Notes under the pieces: generated by a model
What the model was told of the DNA's origin: nothing
The model's input: the letters and a program-made list of their open reading frames with translations, nothing else
The model's database searches: none
In this document: piece after piece, positions 54,462 to 58,219 of the stretch
How positions within the stretch are numbered: position 1 is the first letter of the stretch
Layout of the letters: every line of letters starts with the position of its first letter
Program-made: the position numbers and the translations under genes
Assembly (NCBI RefSeq): GCF_006345805.1
Contig: NW_021831863.1
Span: 1-64,000, forward strand
Reading direction: 5' to 3'
Length of the DNA: 64,000 nt
Source of the DNA: Octopus sinensis
Taxonomy: Eukaryota

Positions 54462-54820
54462 TATCCGCTATATCGGAAATCTACAATGGCTCCATAAGTA
54501 CCGTTTCGGCTATAACCTTGGATCCCTGGTAATCCGTTACAGCACTTACCTAGCGTACCTAGTCATTTAGATCACCTGTGAACTAAATTCCCATATTTTC
54601 TGGGTGTATATGTATATATAAAGAGAAGGCAAATGGCATCCTACGATTTTCAACACTCAGGTTCTATGGAATACTTATAACTAATATACATATATATATA
54701 TATATATATATACATACATACATAAGACCAAAAGTGTACGTACGCTCCTATATGTATATATATAAAAAAAGAACATAACACAAGAACATAATAGGACAGG
54801 AAAAAACAAGGACGGGTCAT

Positions 54821-54908
54821 TCGGAGCTTTCTATCGTCAGGCGAGTTCCAGATCATCCCTGCAGTTTCGGCCGGTTACACTCGAGACTGCTCCAATCTGG
54901 CCGGCCCC
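54821..54908 (-). ncRNA. Candidate permuted/pseudoknotted hammerhead-like RNA (copy 1)
   Basis: ggccgg-ccaga-uugga-gcagUC-ucgagu-guaa-ccggcc-GAAA-cugc...ucugg-a-acucgc-CUGACGA. Confidence 0.5.
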
Positions 54909-55795
54909 AAGAAAATCAAAGCTAAGAGCATTAGATTCTTTGGAAGATAGCAAGCGATTGTACACGAAAACAAGGACGAAAAGAAAAAAAAACGGAGAAA
55001 TGGTACACAATTACGAATATAAACAACAGGACATTAATAACAGGTATCTTTCGACAAAGGACTAATTAAATTAAGCTGGTGTGTGTGGATCATAAGAGAT
55101 GAAAGTCATGGTAAGGAATATAAGAGATGCTACACTGATGGTTATTGAACCAAGAAAGAAAGATCAGGCTTGATGGAACACCGTTCACATGGAAGGAGAG
55201 GAGTAAGGTAGGGGGCAGAAGGATTGAAGCATTAGGGAAGGACGAGAAAGAGAGAAAAAAAAGAAAAAGGACAGAGTGAGGCAAAGAAGGAGGGAAAGTC
55301 CTGAGAATGAAGAGAAAGCCAAGAAATGTCAGAGAAAGAGAGCGAAAAACAGAAAATTGTAAAGAACGAAGAAAGTGTGAAGGGGACTAAAAAAAATAAT
55401 AAAAGAGTTGTACAGAATTCATATATATGTGTATATATACAAAGATACATATATATATATATATGTATATATATATATATATATATATATATATATATAT
55501 ATATATATATATATATAATATATATATATATATATATATATATATATATAATATATATGTGTGTGTGTGTGTATATATATATATATATATATATATATAT
55601 ATATATATATATATACTTACATACATGATACCAAAAGTGAAGCCTTACGGCAGGAACATTACAGATGAAAGTTATAATGTCCTGTTGTTTGTATTTGTAA
55701 TTGTGTACAATTTTTCCCCTTTTTTTGTCCTTGTTTTCGTATACATTCGCTTGCTTTCTTCCAATGAATCTAGTGCTCTTAGCTTAGAGTTTCTT

Positions 55796-55890
55796 GGGGC
55801 CGGCCAAATTGGAGCAGTCTCGAGTGTAACCGACCGAAACTGCAACGACGATGTGGAATTCGACTGACGATAGAAACCTGCGAATGACCA
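55796..55890 (+). ncRNA. Candidate permuted/pseudoknotted hammerhead-like RNA (copy 2)
   Basis: ggccgg...gcagUC-ucgagu-guaa-ccgacc-GAAA-cugc...auucga-CUGACGA. Confidence 0.5.
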
Positions 55891-58219
55891 TCCTTGTTTT
55901 TTCCTGCCTTTTTTGTATCATCTAACTGTCCGAAAATTTTGTTGTCACCTGTTATGTTCTTATTTCATTTTTACTTTGTTTATATATATATATATATATA
56001 TATATATATATATATGTGTGTGTGTGTGTGTGTGTGTGTGTGTGTGTATATATATATATATAAATATACATATATAAATATACATACATACATACATACA
56101 TACATACAAACATACATGTATATATAATTGTTACAGAGGACAACAAACGTCAAAGCAATGCATACATCTCAAGTCATAAGACATGTTAACCTCATAAAGG
56201 GATGGTTACATCCAAGGTAATATTGTTTCGATTCTTAGTATTACTGGGGAATGAAATTCCCTTGAAACAATTAGTATATATTAAGCATATACTTCATATC
56301 CAGTTAAATGAAGAAAAGAATATGGAGAGTTCAGAGTGAATAATTATTTATTATTAACAAACTGGTAATAATTTCATCAGAGAAAAAAGATATAGCTTAA
56401 GTTGCTATATATATACATATATATACATATATACTTATATGTATATATATACGTATATATGCATACATATATATATATGTGTGTACATATGTATACATTA
56501 ATACATGTATACAATTGTGTTTGCGTGTGTATATACACGTACACAGAAACGCACCCACACACACGCATACACACACTCACTCACACACACATATATATAT
56601 TTGCATGTGTATGTATAGCCTATTTCTAACTATAATATTCAAATAACTCTTTAATGTATCTTTCTATAACAGATGCAACCTTTGTGCAAAAGACTGCAGA
56701 GAAAATTGTAGAATAAATGTTGAAATTTGATTTTGAAAATTTTTCATGTCTGTGTATAGGGGTTGGAAGATATCAGGCGGAGATATGCGAGCGGTGGCCT
56801 GGCACTTGTGTGTATGTGCCTATGTGTATGTGTATGTGTGTGTGTGCGTGCGTTTCTTTGTATATCTGCGTATAACGATGCCTATATCAAGTGTGCGAAT
56901 GTTTTGACGCATGCACTGATTTTTTTAATACAGTGTATGAAAATGGCACTATTAGAAATGTTGAGGTTATTATTATCATTATCATTATTGCTGTTGTTAT
57001 TTTGTTTTTCTTTTCGGTCAGTTGTAAAATGAATATTTTCTGTATAATAAATTGTAAGAATGTTTGTGCGAGCATGCGTGCATGTGTTTGAATGTGTGAC
57101 GAAAAGAGAGAGAGAGCGCGGGGCGAGAGAGAAAGATAGAAAGAAAGAAAGAAAAGAAAGGAATAGCGTGTATGTGTAAATGTGTTTACGTGTGTTTATG
57201 TGTATGCCTATGAGCATGCTTGTATGCCTGCTGGTGTGTCACAATGTGTGTGTGTGTGTGTGATTCTATTGCTGTGCATGTAAAATAACGGAAGAGAAAG
57301 AGACAAAGAGAGAGAGAGAGAGAGAGAGAGAGAAAATGAAAGAGAGACAAAGAGATAAAAATAGTGAGAAAGAGAAAGACTGAGAGGCATAAAGACAGTA
57401 TCAAAAAGCCAGCGCATGCGTCAAAACATTCGCACCATTGATATAAGCATCATTGCACGCAGATATACAAAGAAACGCGCGCACACACATATACCTACGC
57501 ATACTTGCACACACACACATACACACACATACATTCGCACACATGCACATAAACACCATACCACTGTGCAAACATCAGCTCCTCCAACCCCTGTAGAGAG
57601 AACGAGGAAGATGGAGACACAAGAGAGTAGAGGGTGGAAGAGTAAATGAAGTCAAGAAAAACAACAACATAAACAATATTTGAGAAATAGTGACATGTCC
57701 GTGTTTGTGTTGGTATCTGCGGTTGTGTTGGATGATTAAAAATAAATAATAATAAAATGAACGTATGAGCCTATGATTGCTTGTTTGTGTGTATGTCTAT
57801 GCGTGTGAAAGTGTTCTTTGAATGTATATGTATGTTTATCTGCATATGTGTGCATATTTGTTTACTACGCGGGGTTGGAGTAGTTTAGTTAAACATATTA
57901 ATATTCAATTGATCATCTAACAATTTTTACACGTCACCTATTGCTTTTACTTTCACTTTCGATGTTTTCCCGCCGTTTTTAATATTTGCTGTTCTTTTCT
58001 CTTCATCTTTCATTTATTCTGCACGTTTAAATTCTCCTTCTAAAGATGATTTTATAAAAAGAAATAAACAATTTCATTTTTTATTTTTTGATTTGTTGTA
58101 TGCTTTGGACATTATTTTCATGATATTTATTATTGTTATTTTTGTTAATAATGAAAAAAAAAAAAGTTAAATGGTATAATTTCTTTTATTATCTCTGTTT
58201 ATGTTTGATTCTGGTCATA

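Follow-up and report, generated by a model that had tools for sequence, protein, structure and literature searches.

A motif present in two inverted copies in a 64,000-nucleotide (nt) stretch of the Octopus sinensis genome (contig NW_021831863.1, positions 1 to 64,000 of the forward strand; hereafter the window) is very probably a rewired hammerhead ribozyme, predicted to cut itself, located towards the 3' end of a short non-coding unit that is repeated in tandem and likely copied by a Naiad, a Penelope-like element (PLE) retrotransposon. On the strength of sequence comparison and covariation, this split-core motif is a new hammerhead topology tied to Naiads and their non-coding tandem derivatives, and it is likely the self-cutting RNA that Naiads were reported to lack. 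An original prediction, made from the letters of the window, had recognised the hammerhead segments and left open whether their fold had been described. The segment order, the short linker and the interaction helix discussed below have in fact been described, and shown to cleave, in type SGC hammerheads (PMC10085705; here and below, statements on earlier hammerhead and PLE literature refer to the accessible parts of the cited papers), and what appears to be new is confined to the split core, the additional helices and the setting in animal retroelements.

Sequence comparison gives the following 5' to 3' order for the motif: the first strand of stem IV, hairpin V, a strand of stem II, the first strand of an interaction helix, block S (a stem III strand, the GUC triplet and a stem I strand), a short linker, block G (the second stem II strand, GAAA and the second stem III strand), the second strand of the interaction helix, and block C, in which the returning strand of stem I leads into CUGANGA, followed by the second strand of stem IV. 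One stem II strand lies 5' of block S, and CUGANGA does not run into stem II. Instead, stem IV is formed between the stretch that follows A9 and another located about 45 nt 5' of G10.1, and hairpin V occupies the interval between this latter strand and G10.1. The linker between stems I and II measures 1-5 nt. The motif retains every catalytic nucleotide as well as the G10.1-C11.1 pair and a free N7 position. Across 20 representatives (seven from the octopus genome and 13 metagenomic), G10.1-C11.1 is held in 20/20, and H17 in these representatives, which were selected on CUGANGA, is C in nine, A in nine and U in two, and never G. Among 23 copies of family A, the repeat that carries the window copies, differences occur in 7/276 cells at catalytic positions, 55/1058 in stems and 37/345 in linkers, with N7 being A, C or G in nine, eight and six copies, respectively.

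The two window copies lie in inverted arms (54802-54982 and 55722-55902) with 87% complementarity, the homology spanning about 240 nt, and both contain the CUGANGA, GAAA and NUH core nucleotides. Unconstrained folding of both yields stem IV and hairpin V, and in copy 1 also stem II. Copy 1 (54818..54960, minus strand), delimited by sequence comparison, begins with the 5' strand of stem IV (54951-54945) and its extension strand (54960-54955; together 54945..54960), followed by hairpin V (54907..54943), which adjoins G10.1 on its 5' side, and by the 10.x strand of stem II, GGCCGG (54906-54901), with the 5' strand of the interaction helix (54900-54894; together 54894..54906). Block S (54879..54890) comprises GCAGU-C (54890-54885), which provides the stem III strand and the GUC triplet, and the stem I strand UCGAGU (54884-54879); with C17 at 54885, the predicted cut, placed by analogy with hammerheads, falls at 54885/54884. 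A GUAA linker precedes block G, CCGGCC-GAAA-CUGC (54874-54861; with the linker 54861..54878). The 3' strand of the interaction helix (54854-54848), the stem I strand ACUCGC (54846-54841) and CUGACGA (54840-54834; together 54834..54854) follow and, after A9, the 3' strand of stem IV (54832-54826) with its extension (54823-54818; together 54818..54832). In copy 2 (55744..55886, plus strand), delimited by sequence comparison and folding, the core segments named in the original prediction lie at 55798-55870, and the helices are IV (55753-59/55872-78), V (55761-97), II (55798-803/55830-35), III (55814-18/55839-43), the interaction helix (55804-10/55850-56) and I (55820-25/55858-63), with CUGACGA at 55864-70, C17 at 55819 and the predicted cut at 55819/55820.

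All the segments first pointed out were thus located in both copies, with the cut positions correctly placed. The statement that the core segments are identical between copies is approximately true, but the stems differ (CCGGCC versus CCGACC; ACUCGC versus AUUCGA). The domain had been drawn too short, as its true start, with stem IV and hairpin V, lies about 50 nt further 5'; that account lacked the host element and these two helices, which span the break between A9 and G10.1. A further proposed helix, uugga/uccga, fares poorly: although 92.6% paired in the copy alignment (A3), it shows changes on both sides in 0/5 pairs. It also shares positions with the interaction helix and with the extension of stem IV, and has better helices as competitors.

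Chance is excluded as the source of the split order, because a descriptor for it returned 95 matches (26 distinct) in the fetched loci against 0 in 437,042 shuffled bases. Between families A and B, which share about 70% identity over the motif, stems I, II and III, as well as the interaction helix, carry compensatory changes. In a nine-helix model of 27 aligned copies, 90.9% of cells are paired, compared with 26-48% in slid controls, and 14/49 pairs change on both sides, a count reached in 0/500 shuffles. Since these 27 copies are related, this test alone overstates significance. In the 20 representatives, stem II pairs at positions 1-5 in every sequence, with position 1 always G-C and positions 2-5 showing three to five pair types each, whereas the canonical pairing downstream of CUGANGA is at background (0.25 within sequences versus 0.29 across sequences). 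When the flanks of 22 sequences (the representatives plus the two window copies) were shuffled 200 times each, with success defined as at most 10 shuffles matching the observed helix, stem II passed in 22/22, stems IV and V together in 20/22 (failing in L050 and L224) and the interaction helix in 16/22 (failing in both window copies and in B, C, D' and E). Covariation supports the hammerhead core, the first assignment of stems I to III, the short linker, the interaction helix ccaga/ucugg, and the lack of continuity from A9 to G10.1.

The order also differs, as had been noticed from the start, from the circular permutations of types I, II and III: these have a C-G-S order and a nested three-way junction, whereas the octopus motif is S-G-C with crossing stems. 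No Rfam family reached its gathering score in the window, and no Rfam ribozyme family was found up to E=10 in 54600-56000. The nearest known relatives are the non-circular permutations described and validated by Eckert (2023; PMC10085705). Type SGC (HRIMA-1 and variants), which cleaves in vitro and was found almost only in metatranscriptomes, shares the S-G-C order, the short linker between stems I and II, a helix joining the other sides of these stems, the core, and two or more pseudoknots. In the octopus motif, however, block C is interrupted (as in 14/14 metagenomic cores described below), a stem II strand and an interaction strand lie 5' of block S, stems IV and V are inserted at A9/G10.1, and the motif sits in animal retroelement DNA. 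Type CSG, represented there by two metagenomic sequences with no known host, has the same cyclic connectivity opened at another point, with an intact block C and no stem IV or V. In the accessible text of that study, the blocks were assumed to be uninterruptible, with CUGANGA always running directly into stem II, and no candidate came from the genome of a known organism except one of type GCS. The pseudoknot hammerhead with a 'helix IV' likewise replaces the loop-loop contact by extra helices and a pseudoknot and keeps A9-G12 and G10.1-C11.1, but there A9 and G10.1 form a short stem under the pseudoknot loop, and helix IV is the pseudoknot stem rather than an insertion at A9/G10.1 (PMC11300833). 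The core insertions reported by Perreault (2011), as far as accessible, are of only 1-2 nt and at other positions. Our literature searches found no account of a split core or of non-circular hammerheads in Naiads, although an earlier A9/G10.1 insertion may be present in subscription papers or in Eckert's supplementary figures.

The genome that carries the window (2.72 Gb, microsatellite-rich) holds several repeat families with the motif. Family totals given here are first-look candidates, not copy numbers, and 40 each were scored in families A, B and E. A 127-nt query for family A gave 1,109 candidates, the scored ones at 86-91% identity. Family A is a non-coding repeat of about 750 bp that inserts into (TA)n, with (TA)4 at most 400 nt from 21/24 of its motifs, and occurs in tandem and inverted; L006 contains a head-to-tail junction, L009, L019 and L022 contain inversions, and an inverted truncated neighbour is frequent. 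Further families with the same layout were met in the DNA flanking family A loci: the tandem family B (1,621 candidates; 40 scored at 99-100% identity), family C (1,551), family D (2,671) and family E (1,487; 40 scored at 97-100% identity), with a tandem spacing of 780-870 nt in B and E. The layout is that of non-autonomous PLE derivatives and non-LTR (long terminal repeat) retrozymes, namely non-coding tandem units with one ribozyme each, a microsatellite target and inverted truncated copies. Non-LTR retrozymes, for which mobilisation by PLEs has also been proposed, and PLE hammerheads are nevertheless of type I and were found by type I descriptors (bioRxiv 10.64898/2026.07.22.740005; PMC6765202), which cannot match the split-core topology.

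Family C corresponds to the Naiad 3' end: in L071, L148 and L149 its motif is found downstream of remnants of a Naiad reverse transcriptase (RT), in the same orientation. In the closest intact relative of this RT, a GIY-YIG domain is N-terminal and the RT domain C-terminal, both weak Pfam matches below the cut-off, and one repeat family resembles, by eye, published Octopus Naiad 3' ends. Family A shares with Naiads the (TA)n target and the tandem and inverted copies, but Naiads measure 3.4-4.4 kb, compared with about 750 bp and no coding capacity in family A (PMC8557442).

Naiads beyond the octopus carry the motif as well. An alignment of 43 Naiad proteins (A2) was used to retrieve metagenomic contigs, and the best 80 of 344 confirmed ones were scanned with a descriptor allowing six intact block orders and the split form. 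A non-circular hammerhead was found in 16/80 contigs, 14 of them split S-G-C and two intact C-S-G (L193:2792 and L197:3480), all on the sense strand, 14 after the open reading frame (ORF) and two before it; in the same contigs there were 0 antisense matches and, at the same threshold, 0 of types I, II or III, with 0 matches in 537,528 shuffled bases. The carriers encode the GIY-YIG (N-terminal) and RT (C-terminal) ORF of Naiad PLEs; one and the same motif is present in L206 and L209, and a further five carriers are closely related. A descriptor requiring only stems I and III recovered the same 14 cores, with 0 cores in 6,719,100 control bases. In 14/14 cores a perfect stem II of 5-6 bp starting with G-C lies upstream, as opposed to 0-1 bp downstream of CUGANGA. 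In a quick RT tree (78/80 rows), split-type carriers fall on several separate branches among non-carriers. The count of 14/80 is a lower bound, since the tail of L207, about 384 nt past the ORF, contains what is probably a split-core variant, missed by the descriptor, whose I-II linker holds a hairpin. A search of viral contigs found no Naiad relative.

We also read by eye the last 300-350 nt of 53/54 Naiad consensus entries of Craig (2021; PMC8557442), a study that, in its accessible text, described Naiads as without canonical hammerheads and noted unexplained 'HHR_core' and 'half_core' strings. The split-core form is visible in eight entries (Bfor, Amil, Aacu, Anas, 2_Movir, Obim, Ovul and Esco), whose hosts are one ctenophore, four cnidarians and three cephalopods, and intact type CSG in six nematode entries (Naiad-1/2/3_Nbra, Hcon, Hpol and Asuum). 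Separately, bivalve and hemichordate ends (CGi, Sglo, Olur, Tgra, Pmar, Skow and Pfla) share another conserved 3' motif, apparently pseudoknotted and without CUGANGA, which may be a candidate for another ribozyme in hammerhead-less Naiads.

Several observations weigh against a self-cutting Naiad ribozyme. Both window copies have helix mismatches: in copy 1, U1.1-C2.1 in the first stem I pair, beside the cut site, and A-A in stem IV; in copy 2, C-A in stem II and A-G in the interaction helix. Both are old copies, probably weakened or dead, and the ribozyme claim concerns the intact family members; in family A, only 3/23 copies retain the core together with the whole of stems I to III and of the interaction helix. 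Because the descriptors demand stems I and III, pairing in these two stems cannot count as independent evidence. Of the long-tailed Naiad contigs without a match, 43/49 have no CUGANGA in the tail, and thus many Naiads do without the split-core motif. In one protein search of the octopus genome, Naiad RT matches were mostly broken and no autonomous element sharing the family A or B 3' end was found. Family A shows no significant DNA similarity to the Naiad 3' end, so that its link to Naiads rests on ribozyme architecture, (TA)n targeting and the tandem and inverted layout. Finally, the break between A9 and G10.1 is without tested precedent in the literature examined.

This last point gives some room to an alternative that we regard as unlikely, in which the fold is real but does not cleave alone, either serving the Naiad RT as a recognition structure derived from a hammerhead, or cutting only with protein help or as a dimer. 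Type SGC ribozymes are moreover slow (0.007-0.19 per min; PMC10085705), and RNA ends are not visible in assembled contigs. The strict conservation of CUGANGA, GAAA, A15.1-U16.1, a non-G H17 and G10.1-C11.1 across RT lineages is nevertheless a signature of catalysis, and the dimer is not favoured because stem II is non-palindromic in most families. It is still less probable that upstream stem II is a decoy and that a canonical register following CUGANGA, either CUGACGA-ua-GAAA or an intact type SGC, gives the active form. The original prediction had drawn attention to this second register, and family A does have a second GAAA 2 nt past the core; a further point on this side, which also counts against the split fold, is that family E could form a weak canonical stem II downstream of CUGAAGA. 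However, the second GAAA is absent from all families but A, the register is unsupported as a fold, and 0/14 metagenomic cores have a canonical stem II, in line with the background level of that pairing. A chance pattern in a high-copy repeat, to which unremarkable nested folding z-scores (-0.09 to -1.2 in 5/6 sequences) and the close relatedness of many copies might point, is already refuted by the contig and covariation tests and has next to no probability, given the zero matches in shuffled controls, the sense-strand-only occurrence and full covariation across unrelated sequences, and given that mutually crossing helices cannot be scored by a nested fold. A hepatitis delta virus (HDV)-like reading, suggested by a GGCCGGC start and a CGAAUG end, was rejected: stems II and IV, which covary, account for these segments, and there was no match to an HDV model.

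For a self-cleaving ribozyme, the agreement in order, linker and interaction helix with the in-vitro-cleaving type SGC counts in favour (PMC10085705), and a mechanism can be proposed. In established hammerhead chemistry, A9 forms a sheared pair with G12 beside G10.1-C11.1, with G12 as base and the 2'-OH of G8 as acid (see also PMC11300833). In the split core, stem IV, after A9, would stack on hairpin V, before G10.1, and hold these two nucleotides together without a bond, and the linker and interaction helix would clamp the far ends of stems I and II in place of the loop-loop contact, as in type SGC, so that the usual catalytic pocket could form. A single cut 3' of NUH in each unit would convert read-through or tandem transcripts into unit-length RNAs with 5'-OH and 2',3'-cyclic phosphate ends, which might also circularise, and a Naiad GIY-YIG/RT protein would copy such RNAs into (TA)n, from which tandem and inverted insertions would result. 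The position of the predicted cut, well within the unit and about 130-150 nt or more short of the (TA)n junction, is consistent with a tandem or circular template being copied, without proving it.

In the window, copy 1 belongs to a near full-length family A unit of about 750 bp (54695..55440, minus strand; 76-80% identity to unit copies in L006 and L008 over 650-800 nt), which is non-coding and consists of a pyrimidine-rich 5' part, the ribozyme, a U-rich tail and a (TA)n end. Two short unit fragments, a 3' end and a middle piece, lie at the inversion junction (55603..55675, minus strand; 85-89% identity to L006 and L008), next to the inverted, 5'-truncated copy that carries copy 2 and ends in (TA)n (55681..55996, plus strand; 85-87% identity over about 320 nt). 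There is no Naiad ORF match in the window, and hence the family A unit here is not an autonomous Naiad PLE with a GIY-YIG and RT ORF. Elsewhere in the window, long inverted repeats resembling miniature inverted-repeat transposable elements lie at 3644-4154 and 37683-38267 (208 nt at 98% and 209 nt at 91%, respectively), the first also similar to 1-190, and a near-perfect short palindromic element at 54340-54465 has, by eye, a partial copy at about 56120-56180.

Families B and E include very young tandem non-coding arrays (L031:690-3330 and L122:1-2650; units of about 835 nt, 97-100% identical), in contrast to cephalopod Naiad ORFs, which were reported to be long dead. For L035:1200-1730, runs X1 and X13, which are only guessed to be RNA, gave two contigs close to the length of one unit (811 and 845 nt); that from X1 wraps around the family B unit, which fits circular RNA or tandem DNA alike. 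A Neptune-like PLE remnant (L064:3964-6947 and L044:1265-1310), with a C-terminal GIY-YIG and a CxxC linker, has a hammerhead-like 3' motif in canonical order (by eye) and a family B copy in its (TA)n tail; the Neptune-like ORF beside that copy belongs to an unrelated host element.

Taken together, we consider it probable that the split core is a seventh hammerhead topology in nature, whose open end lies on the helix inserted within the catalytic strand (A9/G10.1), and an old, active Naiad processing ribozyme present from ctenophores to cephalopods. Given this and the CSG form of nematode Naiads, hammerheads with non-circular permutations would have a major home in animal genomes, and current descriptors would have missed thousands of copies in one octopus genome. 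The topology would break the stated assumption that CUGANGA is covalently continuous with stem II, and its new opening point in the core could serve the building of aptazymes. Young, near-identical natural copies of the motif exist. With it, non-circular permutations would pass from unassigned RNAs of metatranscriptomes to the genomes of animals. For Naiads themselves, it offers an answer to the published puzzle of elements without canonical hammerheads yet with unexplained cores, and it would weaken the argument that they thrive without a ribozyme.
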